Shown piece by piece: positions 9,316-62,967 of a stretch of DNA of 64,000 bases. Position numbers and translations under genes: made by a program. Within the stretch, counting starts at the first letter, position 1; each line of letters begins with the position of its first letter. This DNA is from Malacoraja senta (lineage: Eukaryota), in contig CM075988.1 of NCBI GenBank assembly GCA_038087875.1, forward strand, positions 2,542,001 through 2,606,000, read 5' to 3'. Below the pieces are notes generated by a model. That model saw nothing but the letters and a program-made list of their open reading frames with translations. It ran no database searches and was not told the DNA's origin.

Positions 9316-9753
9316 TCCCATCTGGCCCCAGTGACTTATCCACTTCAAGATTTGTCATCTTCTCTAATATCTCTGTGCTAACAATTCTTAACAGATCCAG
9401 TGTCTCAAACATTTCCTCCACTATTAGTTTGAAATCTCGGTCAGCCTGGGAAAGGACGGCAGATTTCTATCCATAAAAACATTAGTGAACCATGGGCTTT
9501 TATGACCAAAAAACATATAGCTGGAGGAACTCAGTGGGTCAGAGAGTATCTCTAGAGGGAATCGTACAGACGATCCTTCTTTAGACAATTGGGGTTTTAT
9601 GATAATCACGTGGCCCTGTGGCCACAGTTACAAATTATTTCCCTTTTTTGAAAATTCTGGTTTCTGTTTTTTTTAAATCCAGGCCTTTGAGTCACCAGTT
9701 TAACAAGTTAGCCACTTTGTGTAGGGAGAAACTGCAGATGTTGGTTTAAACCG

Positions 9754-9928
9754 AAGACAGACACAAAAAACTGGAGTAACTCAGCGTGTCAGGCAGCATC
9801 TCTGGAGAAAAGGAAAAGGTGACATTTCAGGGGCTGCAGAACGATCTTGACCCGAAATGTCACCTATTCTTTTTCTCCAGAGATGCTGCCTGACCCACTG
9901 AGTTACTCCAGCATTTTGTGTCTGTCTT
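9754..9928. mobile_element. Fold-back pair of Penelope pLTR/hammerhead units
   Basis: 9754-9831 is the imperfect reverse complement of 9851-9928; a degenerate hammerhead core lies at ~9834-9861. Confidence 0.8.
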
Positions 9929-19110: not shown

Positions 19111-19465
19111 TACATCGGTGAGACCAAGCGTAGGCTTGGCGATCGCTTCGCCCAACACCTCCGCTCGGTTCGCAATAACCAACCCGGTGGCTCAGCACTT
19201 CAACTCCCCCTTCCATTCCGAATCCAACCTTTCTGTCCTGGACCTCCTCCATGGCCAGAGTGAGACCACTGTAAATTGGAGGAGCAGCACCTCATATTTC
19301 GCTTGGGCAGTTTACACCCCAGCAGTATGAACATTGACCTCCAATTTCAGGTAGTCCCTGCTTTCTCCTCCGCTTCCCAGGTCTCCCTCAGCCCACTGTC
19401 TCCGCCTCTTCCTTTCTTCTTCCCGCCCCACCCCCCCCCCCCCCCCCCCCGGCACTCACATCAGT

Positions 19466-19493
19466 CTGAAGAAGGGTCTCGACCTGAAACGTC
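19466..19493 (+). ncRNA. Minimal hammerhead ribozyme core in Penelope pLTR
   Basis: CTGAAGA-AGGGTCTCGACCT-GAAA-CGTC. Confidence 0.62.
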
Positions 19494-19770
19494 GCCTATT
19501 TCCTTCGCTCCATAGATGCTGCCTCACCTGCTGAGTTTCTCCAGCACTTCTGTCTCCCCATTCACACCAGTTCTGTAATCCCACTTTCCTCACCCTACAC
19601 ATTAGGGGCAATTTTACAGAGACAGGTTAACCTACAAAGCCAATGCGTCTTTGGATGTGGGAGGAAACCCACATGCTTGCAGGGAGAATGTGCAAATTCA
19701 ACACAGACAGTGCCGAGGACAGGATCGATCACAGATCTCTGGCGTGTGAGGGCAGCAAGTCCACCAGCTG

Positions 19771-20653
19771 GTACACAAAAATGCTGGAGAAACTCAGCAG
19801 GTGCAGCAGCATCTATGGAGCGAAGGAAATAGGTAACGTTTCGGGCCGAAACCCTTCTTCAGACTGATAGGGGGTGGGAGAAGAAAGGAAAAAAGGAAAA
19901 GGCGGAGGAGGAGCCCGAGGGCTGGGGGAGGGGGAGGAGACAACCAGATGGCTGATGAAGGGGAGGGGAACAGCCAGGGCTAGCAGAATTGGGAGAATTC
20001 AATGTTCAGGCCACCAGGATGTAGACTGCCCAAGCGGAATATGAGGTGCATTTCCTCCAATTTACGGTGTTGCTCGCTGTGGCCATGGAGGAGACCCAGG
20101 ACAGAGAGGTCAGATACGGAATGGGAGGGGGGGTTGAAGTGCTGAGCCACCGGGAGTTCAGGTTGGTAATTGCGGACCGACCGGAGGTAGGTTTCGGCGA
20201 AACGATCGCCAAGGTCTCACCGATGTAGATCAGCTGGCATCTAGAGCAGCGAATGCAATAGATGAGGTTGGAGGAGATGCGGGTGAACCTCTGTCGCACC
20301 TGGAACGACTGCTTGGGTCCTTGAATGGAGTGGAGGGGGGGAGGTGAAGGGACAAGTGTTGCATCTCTTGCGGTTGCAAGGGAAAGTACCAGGGGAGGGG
20401 GTGGTATGGGAGGGAAGGGAAGAATTGACAAGGGAGTTACGGAGGGAGCGGTCTTTGCGGAAGGCAGACATGGGGGGAGATGGGAAGATGTGGCGAGTGG
20501 TGGGGTCACGTTGGAGGTGGCGAAACTGACGGAGGATCACTTGTTGTATGTGACGGCTGGTGGGGTGAAAGGTGAGGACTAGGGGGACTCTGCCTTTGTT
20601 GTATGTGACGGCTGGTGGGGTGAAAGGTGAGGACCAGGGACAAGTGTTGGGAT
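19771..20653 (-). mobile_element. Penelope-like (Neptune-type) element, 5'-truncated, with 14-bp TSD
   Basis: ORFs 20241..20540 (CNRKRCNTC) and 20006..20509 (NLIYCIRCSRCQLIYIGET, GIY-YIG endonuclease). TSD AAGTCCACCAGCTG at 19757-19770 and 20654-20667; inserted into a SINE head. Confidence 0.92.
19835..19862 (-). ncRNA. Minimal hammerhead ribozyme core in Penelope pLTR
   Basis: Minus strand reads CTGAAGA-AGGGT-TTCG-GCCC-GAAA-CGTT. Confidence 0.65.
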
Positions 20654-24233: not shown

Positions 24234-25041
24234 ACCATGTCGATAGGAATGGCAGGTCCAATCATTAACCTGGGATTGAGCAGGGTTTCGAGTGTTTCTG
24301 GCCTTGGTGCCTTTACTTTAGAAGTGAGGAAGGGTTGTGATGAGGAATTGTAAGGAGAGGCAGCACTTTATCAGCTCACATACAGCAATTTAAATCTTCT
24401 CCCCAAAGCAGCCTTCACATCTCTTCAGCGGCCAAGTGTCTCGGAACCTGGGAAACAGTTTAACCCTCGAATCACGTTAAAATCATCTGCAGCCAATTTG
24501 ATCAAAAGGTTTAAATTGCCATTTCATCCATCGGGACCCGTTTGCAGCATTATGTGAGGACTTGCATTCTCTGAAAGATCATCACAGATTTCTCACGTAA
24601 AGATGTGCAAATGTACAAAAAGAGAAGCTGCTGGAAGCATTAGTCTGAAGCAGAGTCTCGACCCGAAACGTCACCCATTCCTTCGCTCGAGAGATGCTGC
24701 CTGTCCCGCTGAGTTACTCCAGTTGTTTGTGTCTGGCATTCGGCAGGCCAGGATGTGGAGAGAGAGAAAAAGAGCCACTGTTTCAGGTCAATTACCTTCG
24801 CTCAGAAAGATATGATTTATTTATTATGCCACAGAAGGGGGCCATTTGGCCCATCGTCCACGCATCTGCTCCCCCTGCAGAGCAAACCTCTCAGTCTCGG
24901 GTCCCATCTTCTTACTACCCCAGCAGTCTCTCTCACAAGCCCAACATTTGATTCTTCTGTTACCTGCAGTAAAGGGCAATGTCCAGTTCATAAGTGATAG
25001 GAGCAGAATTAGGCCATTCGGCCCATCAAATCTACTCTGCT

Positions 25042-25457
25042 GACACAAAATGCTGGAGTAACTCAACGGGTGAGGCAACATCTCTGGAGAGAAGGAATGG
25101 GCGACATTTTGGATCGAGACCCTTCTTCAGACTGATATCGGGGAGGGGGCGGGACAAAAGAATGTAGGCGGAGACAGTAAGACTAGTGGAGGAACTGGGA
25201 TGGGAAAGGGGATGGAGAGAGAAAGCAAGGGCTCTGTGAAGTTAGAGAAGTCAATGTTCATACTGCTGGGGTATAAACTACCCAAGCGAAATATGAGGTG
25301 CTGTTCCTCAAATTTGCGCTGGGCCTCACTAACAATGGAGGAGGCCCAGGACAGAAAGGTCAGATTGGGAATGGGAGGGCGAATTGAAGTGCTGAGCAAC
25401 CGGGAGATCAGGTAGGTTAAAGCGGACTGAGCAGAGGTGTTCAGTGAAGCGATCGCT
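25042..25457 (-). mobile_element. Penelope-like element 3' fragment with degenerate hammerhead pLTR
   Basis: ORF 25127..25399 carries [24 protein letters not shown] (PLE endonuclease C-terminus); core at 25103-25130. Confidence 0.85.
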
Positions 25458-32594: not shown

Positions 32595-32639
32595 CCGTGC
32601 ATAGCTCTGGGATACAGGAGTCATGATACCAAGTCTTAC

Positions 32640-32760
32640 GGTAGACAAAAGTGCTGGAGAAACTCAGCGGGTGCAGCAGCATCTATGGAGCGAAGGAAAT
32701 AGGCAACGTTTTGGGCCGAAACCCTTCTTCGATTTTCCAGCATCTGCAGTTCCTTTTTAA
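32640..32760. mobile_element. Mini Penelope-pLTR/hammerhead insert with internal inversion and 14-bp TSD
   Basis: TSD ATACCAAGTCTTAC at 32626-32639 and 32761-32774; a minus-strand hammerhead unit is followed by a plus-strand tail segment. Confidence 0.88.
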
Positions 32761-32804
32761 ATACCAAGTCTTACATTGTGCATGTGGGCTGTATTTGGTC
32801 TTTT

Positions 32805-44589: not shown

Positions 44590-45155
44590 CTGCCGAACAT
44601 TTTAGCTCTCCCCATTCCTACATTAACCATTCTGTCCTGGGGCGCCTCCACTGTCAAAGTAAGGCCACACGCAAATTGGAGGAACAGCAACTCATATTTA
44701 GTCTGATGAAGGGTTTCGACCCGAAACGTTGCCTATTTCCTTCACTCCATAGATGCTGCCTCACCCGCTGAGTATCTCCAGCATTTTTGTCTACCCTCAT
44801 ATTTAGTTTGGGCAGCTTACAACCCAGCAGTACAAATATTGATTTCTCTAATTTCAAGTAACCCCTGCATTTCCCCTCTCTTAACACCTTTGCCACCCTA
44901 GTCATCCTGCCAGTTCCATCATTCACATCCATATATCCCTTCATTATCACCTCTTCCACAGCCAACAATGAACCATTGTGGGCTTATCCTTTCCTTGGTG
45001 ATCGGTGCCAGCTCTGATTTGTTTGGAATCTTTTCATACCTGTAGTTTTATTCACCCCTGACTCTCAGTCTGAAGAAGGGTTTTGACCCAAATCGTCACC
45101 TATATCTTTTCTCCAGAGATGCTGCCTGATCTGTTGAGTTACTCCAGCATTTAGT
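44590..45155 (+). mobile_element. Penelope-like 3' fragment containing a nested mini hammerhead unit
   Basis: RKLEEQQLIF...LQPSSTNIDF remnant; pLTR with degenerate core at 45070-45097. Confidence 0.85.
44703..44795 (+). mobile_element. 93-bp stand-alone hammerhead unit with perfect 12-bp TSD
   Basis: Begins CTGATGA-AGGGT-TTCG-ACCC-GAAA-CGTT and ends GTCTACC; TSD CTCATATTTAGT at 44691-44702 and 44796-44807. Confidence 0.88.
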
Positions 45156-53352: not shown

Positions 53353-54313
53353 TGAACGAAAGATAAACACAAAATGCTGGAGTAACTCAGCAGGACAGGC
53401 AGCATCTCTGGAGGGTGTCATTTCGAGTCAAGACTCTTCTTCAGACTTCAGTTCCTTCCTAAACTAAACATCTCTTGCTTCTACCCTGAACTGCATCCAA
53501 CAACAGAATGCATATGGTTCCCAAGCACAGGTACACTTGCCATCCAGAGACCAACACCTGGTACATTGGCTCTGCATTATGTGTTGCATTCATTGGTGAC
53601 CACCTGCAGTGTAATTTCCCCAAGGTAATGTCGAGCAAGCATTGGAGACACATTCCAAACTTCTCATCCAGGGAGTTACATTTAAAAAAAATTACATGGA
53701 TGGTATAAATTGTATTTGTGCACATTTTCTGGAATTTCCACACATAAATAAGTGGGGGACTCTGCAGAAATCTGGAAGGTCTCCCAGATGCGGTAATACA
53801 CGATTTGATCTTCCCAGGATACCTGATTCAGGTTTGTGAAGCTGTGGTTTCTCTATCACCAGTGGCTTTAAACCATTTAGAGGCAACATATCCACGTCAC
53901 TCTCTGTGAAAGGTTCGTCACAATCTACTCGCACCTGAACCTGTAGACTCCTCGCACAACCTGTCTACACCACACACCTCAACCTGTGTCTACTCGCACC
54001 TCAGCCTGTAGGCTGCCACATCTAAATCTGTGACTGCTCACACCTGAATTAGTTGCTAATTTATTGTTCAAGCCTAAACTTCTTAGTGACTGCTGATCAC
54101 CACTGAACTGTTCATCGACCTGTCACCATCTTTGTGCAATAACCAGTTAATGTCCAGAGAATTCATCATCTTGGATTCTGCGTCCCAAGTTCCTCTTCCA
54201 TTTTTAAAAATATAAATAACCATTTCTCCTTTAGAAGGTAGACACAAATGCTACAAAAACTCAGCGGGTGAGGCAGCATCTATGGAGCGAAGGAAATAGG
54301 CAACATTTCGGGT

Positions 54314-57300
54314 CATAGATACATAGAAAATAGGTGCAGGAGTAGGCCATTCGGCCCTTCGAGCCTGCACCGCCATTCAATATGATCATGGCTGATCATC
54401 CAACTCAGTATCCCGTACCTGCCTTCTCTCCATACCCCCTGATCCCTTTAGCCACAAGGGCCACATCTAACTCCCTCTTAAATATAGCCAATGAACTGGC
54501 CTCAACTACCCTCTGTGGCAGAGAGTTCCAGAGATTCACCACTCTCTGTGTGAAAAGGTTTTTCCTCATCTCGGTCTTAAAGGATTTCCCCCTTATCCTT
54601 AAGCTGTGACCCCTTGTCCTGGACTTCCCCAACATCGGGAACAATCTTCCTGCATCTAGCCTGTCCAACCCCATAAGAATTTTGTACATTTCTATAAGAT
54701 CACCTCTCAATCTCCTAAATTCTAGCGAGTATAAGCCAAGTCTATCCAGTCTTTCTTCATATGAAAGTCCTGACATCCCAGGAATCAGTCTGGTGAACCT
54801 TCTCTGCACTCCCTCTATGGCTATAATGTCCTTCCTCAGATTTGGAGACCAAAACTGTACGCAATACTCCAGGTGTGGTCTCACCAAGACGCTGTACAAC
54901 TGCAGTAGAACCTCCCTGCTCCTATACTCAAATCCTCTTGCTATGAAGGCCAACATACCATTCGCTTTCTTCACTGCCTGCTGCACCTGCATGCCTACTT
55001 TCAATGACTGGTGTACCATGACACCCAGGTCTCGCTGCATCTCCCCATTTCCTAATCGGCCACCATTTAGATAATAGTCTGCCTTCCCGTTTTTGCCACC
55101 AAAGTGGATAACCTCACATTTATCCACATTATACTGCATCTGCCAAACATTTGCCCACTCACCCAGCCTATCCAAGTCACCTTGCAGTCTCCTAGCATCC
55201 TCCTCACAGCTAACACTGCCCCCCAGCTTAGTGTCATCCGCAAACTTGGAGATGTTGCTTTCAATTCCCTCGTCCAGATCATTAATATAAATTGTAAATA
55301 GCTGGGGTCCCAGCACTGAGCCTTGCGGTACCCCACTAGTCACTGCCTGCCATTGTGAAAATGACCCGTTTACTCCTACTCTTTGCTTCCTGTTTGCCAG
55401 CCAGTTCTCTATCCACATCAATACTGAACCCCCAATACCGTGTGATTTAAGTTTGTATCCTAATCTCTTATGTGGTACCTTGTCGAAAGCCTTCTGAAAG
55501 TCCAGATACAACACATCCACTGGTTCTCCCCTATCCACTCTACTAGTTACATCCTCGAAAAATTCTATAAGATTCGTCAGACACGATTTACCTTTCGTAA
55601 ATCCATGCTGACTTTGTCCAATGATTTCACCACTTTCCAAATGTGCTGCTATCCCATCTTTAATAACTGACTCTAGCAGTTTCCCCACTACCGATGTTAG
55701 ACTAACTGGTCTGTAATTCCCCGTTTTCTCTCTCCCTCCCTTCTTAAAAAGTGGGGTTACGTTTGCTACCCTCCAATCCTCAGGAACTACTCCAGAATCT
55801 AAAGAGTTTTGAAAAATTATCACTAATGCATCCACTATTTCTGGAGCTACTTCCTTAAGTACTCTGGGATGCAGCCTATCTGGCCCTGGTGATTTATCGG
55901 CCTTTAATCCATTTAATTTACCCAACACCACTTCCCGACTAACCTGGATTTCACTCAGTTCCTCCATCTCCTTTGACCCGCGGCCCCCTGCTATTTCCGG
56001 CAGATTATTTATGTCTTCCTTAGTGAAGACGGAACCAAAGTAGTTATTCAATTGGTCCACCATATCCTTGTTCCCCATGATCAATTCACCTGTTTCTGAC
56101 TGCAAGGGACCTACATTTGTTTTAACTAATCTCTTTCTCTTCACATATCTATAAAAACTTTTGCAGTCAGTTTTTATGTTCCCTGCCAGTTTCCTTTCAT
56201 AATCTATTTTCCCTTTCCTAATTAAGCCCTTTGTCCTCCTCTGCTGGTCTCTGAATTTCTCCCAGTCCTCTGGTATGCTGCTTTTTCTGGCTAATTTGTA
56301 CGCATCATCTTTTGCTTTGATACTATCCCTGATTTCCCTTGTTATCCACGGATGCACTACCTTCCCTGATTTATTCTTTTGCCAAACTGGGATGAACAAT
56401 TTTTGTAGTTCATCCATGCAGTCTTTAAATGCCTTCCATTGCATATCCACCTTCAACCCTTTTAGAACTAATTGCCAGTCAATCTTGGCCAATTCACGTC
56501 TCATACCCTCAAAGTTACCTTTCTTTAAGTTCAGAACCGTTGTTTCTGAATTAACAATGTCACTCTCCATCCTAATGAAGAACTCAACCATATTATGGTC
56601 ACTCTTGCCCAAGGGGGCACGCACAACAAGTCTGCTAACTAACCCTTCCTCATTACTCAATACCCAGTCTAGAATAGCCTGCTCTCTCGTTGGTTCCTCT
56701 ACATGTTGGTTTAGATAACTATCCCTCATACATTCCAAGAAATCCTCTTCCTCAGCACCCCTGCCAATTTGATTCACCCAATCTATATGTAGATTGAAGT
56801 CACCCATTATAACTGTTTTGCCTTTGTTGCACGCATTTCTAATTTCCTGTTTGATGCCATCCCCAACTTCACTACTACTGCTAGGTGGCCTGTACACAAC
56901 ACCCACCAGCGTTTTCTGCCCCTTAGTGTTTCGCAGCTCTACCCATACCGATTCCACATCCTCCAAGCTAATGTCCTTCCTTTCCACTGCGTTAATCTCC
57001 TCTCTAACCAGCAACGCTACCCCACCTCCTTTTCCTTTCTCTCTATCCCTCCTGAAAATTGAACATCCCTGGATGTTCAGCTCCCAGCCTTGGTCACCCT
57101 GGAGCCATGTCTCCGTGATCCCAACTATATCATAATCATTAATTGCTATCTGCACGTTCAACTCATCCACCTTATTACGAATGCTCCTTGCATTGAGACA
57201 CAAAGCCTTCAGGCTTGTTTTTACAACGCTCTTACCCCTTATACAATTATGTTGAAAAGTGGCTCTTTTTGATTTTTGCCGTGGATTTGTCTGCCTGCCA

Positions 57301-57514
57301 CTTTTACTTTTCACCTTGCTACCTATTGCTTCCGCCTGCATTTTACACCCCTCTGTTTCTCTGCTCACCCATTTAAGAACCCCACCACCTCTTATTCTCT
57401 GTTTATTATTGTTTTCTTCTTTCCCCCCTACATGTTGGGTCTGAGTGCTTTCCTTCTCTGCCTCCTGCCTCACACACTGTCTAATAGCATTCTCTATTTG
57501 AGTCCCTCAACCCC
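54314..57514 (-). mobile_element. Young CR1 LINE with intact ORF2, ORF1 missing
   Basis: Tail at ~54314-54330, 3'UTR, uninterrupted ORF2; the 5' end abuts the rest of a split hammerhead unit. Confidence 0.96.
54405..57341 (-). CDS. CR1 ORF2: APE endonuclease + reverse transcriptase (978 aa from first ATG)
   Basis: EN motifs LNARS, GITETW, VYRPP, MGDFN, LDWVL, SDH; RT motifs [30 protein letters not shown]. No stops or frameshifts in ORF-track frame 54405..57473. Confidence 0.93.
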   Translation of the reverse strand: MQAEAIGSKVKSKSGRQTNPRQKSKRATFQHNCIRGKSVVKTSLKALCLNARSIRNKVDELNVQIAINDYDIVGITETWLQGDQGWELNIQGCSIFRRDREKGKGGGVALLVREEINAVERKDISLEDVESVWVELRNTKGQKTLVGVVYRPPSSSSEVGDGIKQEIRNACNKGKTVIMGDFNLHIDWVNQIGRGAEEEDFLECMRDSYLNQHVEEPTREQAILDWVLSNEEGLVSRLVVRAPLGKSDHNMVEFFIRMESDIVNSETTVLNLKKGNFEGMRRELAKIDWQLVLKGLKVDMQWKAFKDCMDELQKLFIPVWQKNKSGKVVHPWITREIRDSIKAKDDAYKLARKSSIPEDWEKFRDQQRRTKGLIRKGKIDYERKLAGNIKTDCKSFYRYVKRKRLVKTNVGPLQSETGELIMGNKDMVDQLNNYFGSVFTKEDINNLPEIAGGRGSKEMEELSEIQVSREVVLGKLNGLKADKSPGPDRLHPRVLKEVAPEIVDALVIIFQNSLDSGVVPEDWRVANVTPLFKKGGREKTGNYRPVSLTSVVGKLLESVIKDGIAAHLESGEIIGQSQHGFTKGKSCLTNLIEFFEDVTSRVDRGEPVDVLYLDFQKAFDKVPHKRLGYKLKSHGIGGSVLMWIENWLANRKQRVGVNGSFSQWQAVTSGVPQGSVLGPQLFTIYINDLDEGIESNISKFADDTKLGGSVSCEEDARRLQGDLDRLGEWANVWQMQYNVDKCEVIHFGGKNGKADYYLNGGRLGNGEMQRDLGVMVHQSLKVGMQVQQAVKKANGMLAFIARGFEYRSREVLLQLYSVLVRPHLEYCVQFWSPNLRKDIIAIEGVQRRFTRLIPGMSGLSYEERLDRLGLYSLEFRRLRGDLIEMYKILMGLDRLDAGRLFPMLGKSRTRGHSLRIRGKSFKTEMRKNLFTQRVVNLWNSLPQRVVEASSLAIFKRELDVALVAKGIRGYGEKAGTGY

Positions 57515-58569
57515 AACCCTTCTTCAAAACATTTCTCCTTTAGAGGCAACTTTGACCAAAATAACTTGGTGTCGGTGGTAAAACCTGCTGCACTTGCAAG
57601 AACATAAGGACAGTGTTGAACAATTATCAAGTACATAAACACTGAAGAAGATAGCCCTCAATGCTACAGTGTTTATGTACATTGATCCATCTCGGATCAG
57701 CAATCTAAATTTTATTGGCTGAATACAGGAGTCGCGAAGCTTGCGCCAGTCATTTAGGGTCCTGAGAAGACCACGCCGAGGATATAGGTCAGATTCATCA
57801 CCAAAGGGACATGGTCACAGTGATGGAGAGTGTGCTGCAAGAGGTCTCCTGGTTGACTCCTGGGATGGTGGGTTTGCTTGAAGAGAGATTGCACCTACAC
57901 TATAACAAGAATGAGAAGTGATTTAGTTACAGTTTCAAAGAAAGTGTTGGTCATTAGAATTCAAGATGAGGAAAAATCTAATGCGTGAAGAAGGTCAAGA
58001 ATCTTGGATCCTCTCTTGTGTCCTCTGGCATAGGAGGCAATTCAGCCCATTGAGTATCTGCTAGCTCTGGGTAATCCCATTCCCCCACAATCTATTGACT
58101 CTTGTATGCCGTTCAATTGATTGTGATCCCACACATCTAAGTTTGGGGTAAATTAAAATGGGTAATTAATCTAGCAGGCAGCCTGCCTTTGGAATGTGGA
58201 GGGAAGCTGGAATACCCAGTGAAACCGGCACAGTCACAGGAAGAATGTATAAACTCCACACACACAGTGCCGGAGGTCGGGATTGAACACAGATTGCTGG
58301 AGCAGTAAAGCAGCACCTGATGTCTCACATGGCTGCGCTGTTGTGCCAGTTCACTAGCCAAGAGGGCCATGGAGACTCACATCTGGCATGTCCAAGTCAC
58401 GACTGGTGTTAGAGCAGGTAAATGGCACTAACCATGACCTTAGTTAATTGTAGAAGAAGGGAAATGAGTAAAACGGAGAGAAGCTGGGGAAGGAGTGGAG
58501 AGGAGAGAAAAGTGAGAGGATTGAGAGAAAGGAGACAGGTGTCCAGTTACGAAAGGTGTCCAGGGCCAG

Positions 58570-59530: not shown

Positions 59531-60341
59531 GATCTGGGAGCCCATGCTGGGGTTTAGTGGGTAAGTTAGCGGCAAGCACATGGAATTATTCATCCCTCCC
59601 CAAGTAAGTTGCTGATGTCTGCATGAGAGCATAGTTCCATAGTTCATATCATATTTGGTGCCTTAGTTTGGATGGGTTCAAGGCCTCTGCGTAATGTCTG
59701 GTTCACTGCAGGCATCATCTGCTCTCAGAGCCATTTCATTTGCTGCGGGCAAGGTGCAAGAGACGAGCTGAAAATCCAGAAGGGTCCTTTGACTCTGAAG
59801 TTCCCAGGGCCCAGGATAGACACGAAAAGCTGGAGTAACTCAACGGGTCAGACAGCATCTCCGGAGAGAAGGAATAGGTGATGTTTCCGATCAAGACCCT
59901 TCTTCAGACCTGTGAGTCCACGTGAGTTTAGTTCCCAGGTGAGCAGGATGAGCAGTGATCTGCCCAATGTACATCTGAACTGCAGAGTGATGATATGGAT
60001 GTCACTTCAATCACCGGGAAGGAGCTGCATGTTGAGCCGGTGCATTGACTGTGGCTGTGAGTGGTGAGGTTGTGCCACAGTCAGGATGGCTCTAACCGCA
60101 CTCCGAACCCTCTGTGCAGAGGAGGTTGAGGAAGCTCACCTCCAGCCAGCTGAGCTCCCTCCGCCTCTTCATTTTATAACATTGAACTTCCACACAGACC
60201 AACGATATAGTGTCTACTGTAAATCTGGGCAGGAGTGTGAGCTGTGAGGAGCACGCAAACAGGTCGGAAAAATGCACCACAGGGGTGGGCAAAAAGTGGT
60301 AGGAGTGTAACAGGTAAGTGTGATGTTACTGGGAGGAGAGA

Positions 60342-61463: not shown

Positions 61464-62967
61464 TAGGAAGGAACTACAGATGCTTTTTAAATCAAAGATA
61501 AACACAAAATGCTGGAGTAACTCAGTGGGACAGGCAGCATCTCTGGAGAGAAGGAATGGGTGACGTTTTGGGTCGAGACCCTTTTTCAGACTGATGTCAG
61601 GGGAGTGGGAGGTACATATATAAGGAAGTGTATAGAATAGAAAGTGTAAGGTGTGAAAACAGGACAAAGGGAATGGAGATCAAGGAAAATGTAGAATATA
61701 TCATTGTTAGTTGGGAGAAGATAACAACACAGCAAACAGATTTGATCACCGGGTAAAAATCGTTTTGCTGAACAGTTCACCTAAACCAACCTGATCTCCC
61801 AGTATAAAAGGAGCCCGACTGTCTTTTGGGTCACTCGCACCGCCTCCAACCTCATCTATGGTACCTGAAGAAGGGTTTCGGCCCGAAACTTTGCCTATTT
61901 CCTTCGCTCCATAGGTGCTGCCTCACCCACTGAGTTTCTCCAGCATTTTTGTCTATCATCTATGGAACCTGCCGTCAGGCACAGATATATCGCTATCAAA
62001 ACATGGGGGGGGGGGGGACACAATTTCGTGGCGGACATGCGCACGCACACACGCGAGGCTTCGGCCGTGGGCCCTGTGGACGGTAACTTCGGAAGCTGAC
62101 CTGGTTGGTGACCAACTCCGAACTCCAGCAACAGCAGCTTCGTCCGCCCCGAATCGCGGGCCTTTCATCGGCCGGCGGGGGCTTCAACATCGGGAGCCTC
62201 GATCGCCTCGATGCAGCAGTTTGATTTTAAGCCACGCCGGGTACTGAAAGGCCCCGCAAACGGGCCGATTCAGCCCTTAGAAAGCGTCTGATAAAGTCCG
62301 GTTTACAAAACATGGGGGGGATTGTCCCCTACCTCAAAGCATGGGGGGCGGCATTCTCCCCGTCCCCCCAGGATTTCCGCCCATGCCCGCTGTTCCAGGT
62401 GTGACTCCCATATATCGGCGAGACCAAGCGCAGGCTTGGCGATCGTTTCACTGAACACCTCCGCTCAGTCCACCTAAACCTGCCTGATCTCCCAGTTGCT
62501 AAATACTTTAACTCCCCCTCCCATTCCCACACTGACCTTTCTATCCTGGGCTTCTTCCAGTGTCAGAGTGAGGCCCAGCGCAAATTGGGCCTCACTCTGG
62601 GCAACACTTCATATTTTGATTGGGCAACTTACACCCCAGCGGTATGAACATTGACGTCTCAACTTCAAGTTGCCCTTACTTTCTCTCTCTCTCCATCCCC
62701 TCCCCCTTCACAGTTCTCCAACCAGTCTTACTGGCTCTGACTACATTTTATCTCTGCTTTGTCGTTACCTTCTCCCAACTAACAATGATTCCATTCCCTT
62801 TGTCTTGTTTTCACATCTTACATTTCCTTATAAATACACTTCCTTATCTATGTACTTCCCACTACCCTGACATCTGAAGAAGGGTCTCGACCCAAAATGT
62901 CATCTATTCCTTCTCTCCAGAGATGCTGCATGTCCTGCTGAGTTACTCCAGCATTTTGTGTCTATCT
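61464..62967 (+). mobile_element. Penelope-like element with inverted 5' pLTR
   Basis: Minus-strand pLTR 61464-~61750, then plus-strand body (YIGETKR at ~62411) and pLTR to 62967. TSD TTGAGAGCAAGGTT / TTGAGGGTAAGGTT at 61450-61463 and 62968-62981. Confidence 0.85.
61976..62385 (+). mobile_element. hAT-like MITE (same family as 14384-15259)
   Basis: Shares internal sequence with that copy; right TIR GATTTCCGCCCATG; decayed 8-bp TSD CCTGCCGT / CCCGCTGT. Confidence 0.8.

Follow-up and report, generated by a model that had tools for sequence, protein, structure and literature searches.

A 93-bp insert that opens with the catalytic box of a hammerhead ribozyme and lies inside the remnant of an older Penelope element (PLE) raises the question of whether it is a mini-retroelement moved by the PLE enzyme, or marks a place where PLE copying tends to stop. 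It lies in the 64,000-nucleotide stretch of DNA analysed here (the window; features in Table 1). Element positions are counted from the C of CTGATGA (+1, window 44703), with the predicted hammerhead cut after +28. As the first-pass annotation had described, the stretch between the two repeats opens with CTGATGA and the repeats are identical; the 12-mer CTCATATTTAGT has no third copy in the window, and a lenient finder of target-site duplications (TSDs) gave a score comparable to this repeat at 26 of 3000 random sites. The AGT microhomology said to blur the 5' junction is real, AGT being common to the end of the TSD and to element positions -3..-1, and the junction therefore lies somewhere between -3 and +1. 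All 93 bases align to the PLE end, and the insert has no head or promoter of its own. It belongs to the subfamily whose pLTR end reads GTCTACC, and its nearest tree neighbours include a 1.4-kb copy. The label "hammerhead-only" overstated the case, as two thirds of the unit lie 3' of the core, while the proposed 3' fold-back is indeed the predicted minimum-energy fold but of modest stability (z -1.8; 11 of 200 shuffles as good). The focal insert is a real insertion; it covers the 3' terminal part of a Neptune-type PLE that is young, starting at the minimal hammerhead and stopping at the first of the two fixed 3' ends.

Table 1. Features of the focal insert, its host and related copies in the window
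Feature	Position	Strand	Remark
Left target-site duplication	44691..44702	+	last 3 bases AGT also match element -3..-1
Insert, 93 bp	44703..44795	+	+1..+93 of young Neptune-type PLE pLTR end, lacking the 35-nt tail
Minimal hammerhead core	44703..44730	+	letters compared with descriptor features of PMC4209133 (in part)
Predicted 3' hairpin, immediately upstream of the +93 end	44751..44786	+	fold prediction, z -1.8
First of the family's two fixed 3' ends (+93)	44787..44795	+	putative reverse-transcription start site
Right target-site duplication	44796..44807	+	
Host: remnant of an older PLE's C-terminal GIY-YIG endonuclease, interrupted by the insert	44592..44860	+	
Host element's own older pLTR	44861..45152	+	79% identity to young pLTR end
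Degenerate hammerhead in the host's older pLTR	about 45070-45100	+	
Second solo unit (+1..+91)	61852..61965	+	10-bp direct repeat
Unit +3..+93 preceded by inverted tail (+93..+127)	32626..32774	-	14-bp TSD
Solo unit, its helix II later interrupted by ~3.2 kb of other DNA	54221..57544	-	15-bp TSD
Young copy of the family, long but 5'-truncated (endonuclease part and pLTR)	19770..20648	-	

Removal of the insert restores the interrupted endonuclease remnant, as had been predicted: the joined flanks form a single frame ending in LEEQQLIFSLGSLQPSSTNIDFSNFK and a stop, which matches residues 1158-1211 of the full-length PLE protein (tblastn E 6e-5). Paralogous host copies are uninterrupted at the insertion spot and mostly carry CGC or TGC where the host has AGT. 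DNA contigs from four related runs contain both unique flanks; all of them break at the repeat and none bridges the insert. None of the sequencing runs listed with the focal stretch is on record as RNA. Three further TSD-flanked units had been noted in the window, and direct repeats of 10, 14 and 15 bp do flank them; however, the unit at 32640-32760 is not a simple one, since it bears an inverted copy of the 35-nt tail. These units had been said to start within a few nt of the CUGANGA box; this does not hold for every young copy, because the window also holds long ones at 19770-20648 and 19111-19558. Additionally, we observed that the solo units at 61852-61965 and 44691-44807 both lie within apparent PLE endonuclease sequence and that their TSDs both begin (C)TCAT, resembling the element's own -11..-1; such starts may reflect a target or annealing preference.

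The parent family is well represented in the genome (1.94 Gb searched). The best 30 genomic matches to the insert comprise solo units, inverted forms and copies extending into the endonuclease, and eight of these 30 continue into the endonuclease or the upstream pLTR. A protein search returned 8624 candidates, and each of the 150 that were scored is 98-100% identical. Among 14 long-frame loci fetched, L203, L205 and L206 contain a 1212-aa frame running from the first ATG at +164. The full-length layout consists of a partial upstream copy, the pLTR, the hammerhead, the 35-nt tail, the ORF and a pLTR that stops at +93; four of the six full-length copies checked are flanked by TSDs of 7-14 bp. 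The L203 frame matches Pfam RVT_1 with an E value of 6e-4, below the Pfam cut-off, and its C-terminal piece matches GIY-YIG at 22.9 bits (cut-off 22.6). A CX4CxxC linker, CNRKRCNTC at residue 1079, precedes the endonuclease; linkers of the form CX2-5CxxC mark Neptune/Nematis and are absent in Poseidon (PMC8557442, in part). The family is probably a Neptune-clade EN+ PLE, its clade being set by this linker motif and not by a reverse-transcriptase tree. The other features of EN+ PLEs are present as well, namely partial tandem pLTRs, a tail of 30-40 bp (35 here), an inverted 5' copy and a TSD. The three intact copies represent the youngest sister subfamily, which ends GTGTACC where the focal subfamily ends GTCTACC. 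Over the endonuclease region of L203 (2200-2850), poly(A) reads are about 2-3 to 1 first-mate-plus; in most stranded libraries such an excess denotes antisense RNA.

How such copies end was read from an unselected sample of 1.664 Mb, made of the window and 32 blocks of 50 kb at round-number positions. The sample holds 464 copies anchored at the 3' half, 107 of them at least 89% identical to a young reference and 89 of those 107 bearing the young diagnostic motif. After five rows were removed as duplicated segments and 15 inverted mates were merged, 69 events remained, 48 direct and 21 inverted; the design is blind to copies truncated 3' of about +55, a few "direct" rows contain short pieces in inverted orientation, and for several long ends the value is a lower bound. 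The direct events have two 3' ends, 34 of 48 being tail-less (+93) and 14 ending at +127-129, while every inverted event (21/21) pairs one +93 arm with one +128 arm, and 18 of these 21 are flanked by TSDs of 9-19 bp. Among direct copies outside the window, a TSD could be assigned to 13 of 26 short and 8 of 17 long ones, compared with 45 of 3000 random sites. Outside the window there are 24 solo units in 1.6 Mb, which scales to an estimated ~29,000 young solo units genome-wide.

The 5' ends gather at the edge of the hammerhead. Among the 43 direct events outside the window, four end in +45..+12, 22 in +11..-6 and two in -7..-90, with 15 ending farther upstream, which gives the hotspot -6..+11 a density of 0.043 ends per nt against 0.002 elsewhere (~22x, binomial p 2e-18). 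Genome-wide exact counts, made for one helix-II variant, fall from 26469 (+7) to 20930 (+1), 17874 (-2), 14549 (-3), 10232 (-6) and 8418 (-9), that is, by 3.8, 7.6, 18.6, 11.1 and 6.3% per nt, compared with ~1.7% from substitution; between +1 and -6, 51% are lost where 10% would be expected. The largest single-step loss (18.6%) falls between -2 and -3, and the modal 5' end is the G at -2, with which the 2-bp helix I ends. RNA reads from a related organism have loose ends at places matching the hotspot ends. Together, these counts support the termination hotspot, one of the two options left by the first-pass annotation. It is hardly tenable that the solos arose by random 5' truncation or as deletion-derived solo pLTRs, with the clustering produced by alignments that stop at a variable poly-C tract. 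PLEs are known for high 5' truncation and single hammerhead motifs (PMC8557442 and PMC4209133, in part), and the upstream tract does vary in length, but for 13 of 26 solos a TSD is found no farther than about 30 bp from the 5' end, the solo flanks are not pyrimidine tracts, the exact counts drop most at -2/-3, before the tract is reached, and just two ends fall in -7..-90. The endpoint table and the genome-wide counts rule out both random truncation and an alignment artefact.

The other option, an independent non-autonomous mini-element of ~93-96 nt, SINE-like or retrozyme-like and copied by the PLE protein, is improbable and already largely refuted. The abundance of the solo units (the 24 counted outside the window) speaks for it, as do true tandem derivatives (a 408-bp array, a 138-bp array and 94-98-bp tandems, described below) and a slight clustering of the solo/long label on the tree (15-20 of 500 shuffles as low). 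However, on this tree of 43 direct copies and 86 columns, which has low resolution, the label needs 10 changes, four of them forced by the starred branch (shuffled mean 13); the sole starred clade unites 11 long with 7 solo copies, and two sets of identical sequences span both classes. The clustering tracks subfamily make-up, subfamily a accounting for 19 of 26 solos and 6 of 17 long copies. Moreover, solo copies use the same pair of 3' ends as long copies and resemble them in TSD length, the unit contains no sequence specific to it, its 5' ends are staggered and lie off the cut, and three fillers checked matched nothing else among the fetched loci. The annotation had named two signs of ordinary 5' truncation; solo units intermixed with long copies were indeed found on the tree, while the 5' ends turned out not to be broadly spread. 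The focal insert is very probably a dead-end PLE stub, as a stub that has neither tail nor ORF start is likely to go no further. Captured host exons were also considered as the source of the fillers and rejected, the three fillers having matched only themselves among the fetched loci.

Hammerhead cutting does not explain where the stub ends. The core of the focal unit comprises CUGAUGA, an extra A, a 4-bp helix II with a UUCG loop, and GAA-ACGU-U, with the predicted cut after 44730 (GUU triplet). Helix I has only 2 bp (G-2:C+30 and U-1:G+29, A-3 facing C+31), short of the 4-5 bp of the min-HHR definition. The pattern is kept in 39 of 60 young copies, 32 of the 39 with an intact helix II; Rfam gave no match at gathering level across the window and none to E 10 at the insert. 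We rejected ribozyme cutting as the source of the 5' ends of plain stubs, given that 1 of 43 direct ends falls in +26..+32, and the counts of non-matching letters near the cut form no clear peak (511 at +30, 616 at +29, 474 at +28). Judged against this predicted cut position, the ends of the focal stub are not set by ribozyme cutting.

We therefore turn to the copying process itself. In the reading that we prefer, with a probability of roughly 0.55, the very short copy arises from a 12-base-staggered cut, a start at +93 and run-off from an RNA beginning at about -2/-3. Specifically, the PLE enzyme would cut the target with a 12-base stagger, target-primed synthesis would start at the fixed internal site +93, and the enzyme would run off an element RNA whose 5' end lies at about -2/-3, the 5' edge of the hammerhead; this end may come from a start at the initiator-like TCAGT or from trimming. 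By analogy to the anole element in vitro, the two 3' ends (+93 and +128) would be synthesis start sites, and these ends and the strict pairing of arms would fit one start site per DNA end, a direct stub presumably retaining one cDNA only. Since full-length copies have the pLTR-tail-ORF junction at their 5' end, no products other than those of 93 or 128 nt would come from an RNA that starts there, and longer copies would need read-through or tandem RNA. The stub ends are likely concentrated at the hammerhead edge because the copied RNA begins there. TCAGT precedes the core in young and old subfamilies, and at the hammerhead edge it resembles what we take to be an initiator motif. Immediately before -2, 1488 of 3325 cases carry G (45%, versus 30% expected on base composition), which would suit a cap-copied or untemplated base; A>G change in the longer copies, together with inverted arms, can account for some of this excess. 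A cap-derived extra G is known for L1; twin priming and the telomerase template boundary are likewise known.

Several observations bear on whether the RNA really ends there. In vitro, the product of the anole PLE became shorter with the 5' end of its template (PMC11167929, in part). Second passes, in which a partial copy stands in front of the ORF start, stop in the hotspot in 3 of the 27 cases that reach +11. For first passes the figure is 22 of 39 (Fisher p 2e-4, and p 0.03 when only the matching subfamily is compared); 34 second passes were scored after removal of eight repeat units of one array, a set biased to the youngest, longest products. Because second passes stop less often, the stop is not a plain property of the sequence. 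Were there one RNA population with its start at -3, second-pass stops should be more frequent and not less; given their low rate, the run-off reading needs a second RNA class. Against an RNA end, moreover, the spread of the 5' ends, about +11 to -9, exceeds what a single start site would give, and one tandem array begins at -118. Poly(A) reads from a related organism (6% of one run) had no pile-up of molecule starts at -2/-3, a weak test because 90% of the reads run on into unrelated flank; these reads cover the unit about equally on both strands, mostly inside unrelated transcripts, and are blind to short uncapped or non-polyadenylated RNA. The hotspot context also resembles a 3' splice site, and in Drosophila virilis an intron end adjoins the hammerhead, with the start 46 + 75 nt upstream of that intron end (PMC2377424 and PMC4209133, in part). 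For a spliced template, the one candidate junction tested had 0 genomic matches, and no GT-AG joint occurred among the 15 listed of 75 joints in the poly(A) reads of the related organism; an end at the splice acceptor (-1) was rejected, the mode at -2 not fitting it. The pLTR upstream of the core appears intron-like, with a pyrimidine tract and CAG, at L003:1395-1500 and at window 44856-45069, and a donor-like motif is seen at the ORF stop in one subfamily and is absent from the youngest.

A close rival, which we hold with less than even confidence, is that the template is a long, intact RNA and that bound protein sets the boundary at which the enzyme stops; -2..+128 would be held as one domain, much as at a telomerase template boundary, and would block the first pass only. 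One RNA class would then suffice and the first-pass bias would be explained. For RNA beginning at about -16, -2..+10 is predicted to pair with +118..+128 in the youngest subfamily, a head-tail helix that would join the modal stop to the second 3' end and that beats shuffled tails in 28 of 29 copies, these not being independent. The anole hammerhead cuts only with protein, and uncut RNA is its main template (PMC11167929, in part). However, when upstream RNA is included, the prediction has the core paired with the pyrimidine tract upstream instead (p 0.65-0.97), the head-tail helix showed no compensatory change, the anole product in the same source tracked the template 5' end in vitro, and the G excess before -2 is left unexplained. 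A helix closing at -2/+128 fits a protein-set boundary and an RNA end equally well.

Rare tandem copies record further junctions. Rejoining of the 3' end to +18..+32 gave 45 matches in 22 loci (grouped by hand reading), of which 16 join at +29, the predicted cut, and the other six at six different positions. The +29 tandems have 61-bp units (+29..+89), up to 8 junctions and nine junction types, six of them free of microhomology; examples are G000:C4:32317114-32317571, C7:34680625-34689559, C9:35222349-35222564 and C18:6028760-6028912. At L259:1448-2982 (G000:C1, about 27.817-27.819 Mb), a 138-bp tandem (+29..+166) has 11 junctions exactly at the predicted cut; it starts mid-unit, ends at +128, lacks the catalytic core and has no TSD seen by eye. 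The junctions at +29 and the L259 units are what a cut RNA end would leave. Identical jump-back junction types may share a single origin. As a control, junctions onto +30..+44 gave 108 matches, about three quarters of the 100 rows listed lying at +41..+43 by eye; these are more numerous than those at +29, are also multimeric, forming ~50-bp tandems (for example C6:67802766-67803500), and adjoin a predicted stem. The notion that a jump junction equals an RNA end is weakened, control junctions outnumbering those at the cut. Junctions onto the +2..+14 region gave only 19 matches, and those onto -6..+4 gave 50, mostly at -3 and -2, often with one or two extra bases there, a point in favour of an RNA end. 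Whole stubs form 94-98-bp tandems in C4 (0.5-2.7 Mb) and C636. An array at L247:705-6314 (G000:C2688:130705-136314) consists of 13 complete 408-bp units (-118..+291), all of which retain an intact hammerhead, and a partial unit that stops at +93; an inverted tail arm stands at its head and a repeat of ~10 bp flanks it. Its first unit starts at the unit junction (-118), at the ORF stop codon. By anatomy, this array would fit the definition of a non-LTR retrozyme. Tentatively, the stubs and rare tandems may form a genome-wide record of a bounded, telomerase-like PLE template, with priming per end at +93 or +128 and boundaries at -2, +29 and +42, that at +29 being the hammerhead cut. If true, this would be a trace of a minimal PLE hammerhead cutting in the germline and yielding 61- and 138-nt repeat units.

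Much of this anatomy has counterparts in known systems, each cited source being used in part. [quoted passage not shown] In those texts the truncation and tail are described qualitatively; the hotspot at the hammerhead edge, the 21/21 rule of one arm each and the difference between first and second passes go beyond them. The Poseidon element PAc of Anolis carolinensis (PMC11167929) also has two adjacent internal start sites that define the tail, has both strands cut and extended, needs no ribozyme cleavage, and resembles our family in its target, which here contains ATT. It differs in that its ORF starts inside the hammerhead, whereas the first ATG here lies after the tail, and that no RNA reads ending at the cut were found in that work, whereas rare tandem junctions occur at the predicted cut here. 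The minimal hammerheads of metazoan PLEs (PMC4209133), mostly single and ascribed to truncated PLEs, share CUGANGA, the extra base before helix II, G10.1-C11.1, the palindromic ACGU and the absence of helix III; here helix II has 4 bp, the triplet of the focal copy is GUU and the activity is predicted, while the 2-bp helix I is as in D. virilis and unlike the usual 4-5 bp. Non-LTR retrozymes (PMC7229834; bioRxiv 10.64898/2026.07.22.740005) are similarly derived from PLE pLTRs, with a type I hammerhead and a TSD of >4 bp. The focal unit, in contrast, is single, 93 bp long, not cut-to-cut and of no lineage of its own. Retrozymes are defined by at least two tandem hammerhead units, found here only in the C2688 array, and by an RNA unit bounded by cuts, whereas the focal unit runs from -3/+1 to +93. 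They are further defined by expression as linear and circular monomer RNA, while the RNA data used here are poly(A) reads of another organism.

Single hammerheads of truncated PLEs, the tail, inverted copies, TSDs and PLE-derived retrozymes were thus already known, and a single insert such as the focal one is by itself ordinary. In the titles and abstract starts of the openly accessible literature we found no description of the hammerhead-edge hotspot, and in the same titles and abstract starts no report of the strict arm rule or of junctions at the cut. The copying cycle of PLEs and the role of their hammerhead are described as open questions (PMC8557442 and PMC11167929, in part), and the hotspot offers a testable clue to how PLEs copy themselves, the footprints being mechanistically useful although of a known kind. 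With thousands of near-identical copies and intact frames in this family, the footprints predict for in vitro work starts at +93 and +128 on separate DNA ends, a stop at -2 and occasional jumps at +29 and +42. They also urge caution in such genomes, where numerous "hammerhead SINEs" flanked by TSDs can be by-products instead of forming a separate family.

Additionally, an older set sharing the same pLTR end (70-85% identity) is about four times more abundant and has similar short and inverted forms, with examples in the window at 9520-9923, 24642-25133, 59817-59909, 61499-61592 and 62873-62964. At L246 lies an internally deleted copy (+11..+546 followed by the pLTR) with an inverted head, a possible non-autonomous derivative. 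At L226-L229 and L256, full-length elements stand head-to-tail or inverted, about 4.0 kb apart, and are candidate source arrays for long RNAs.
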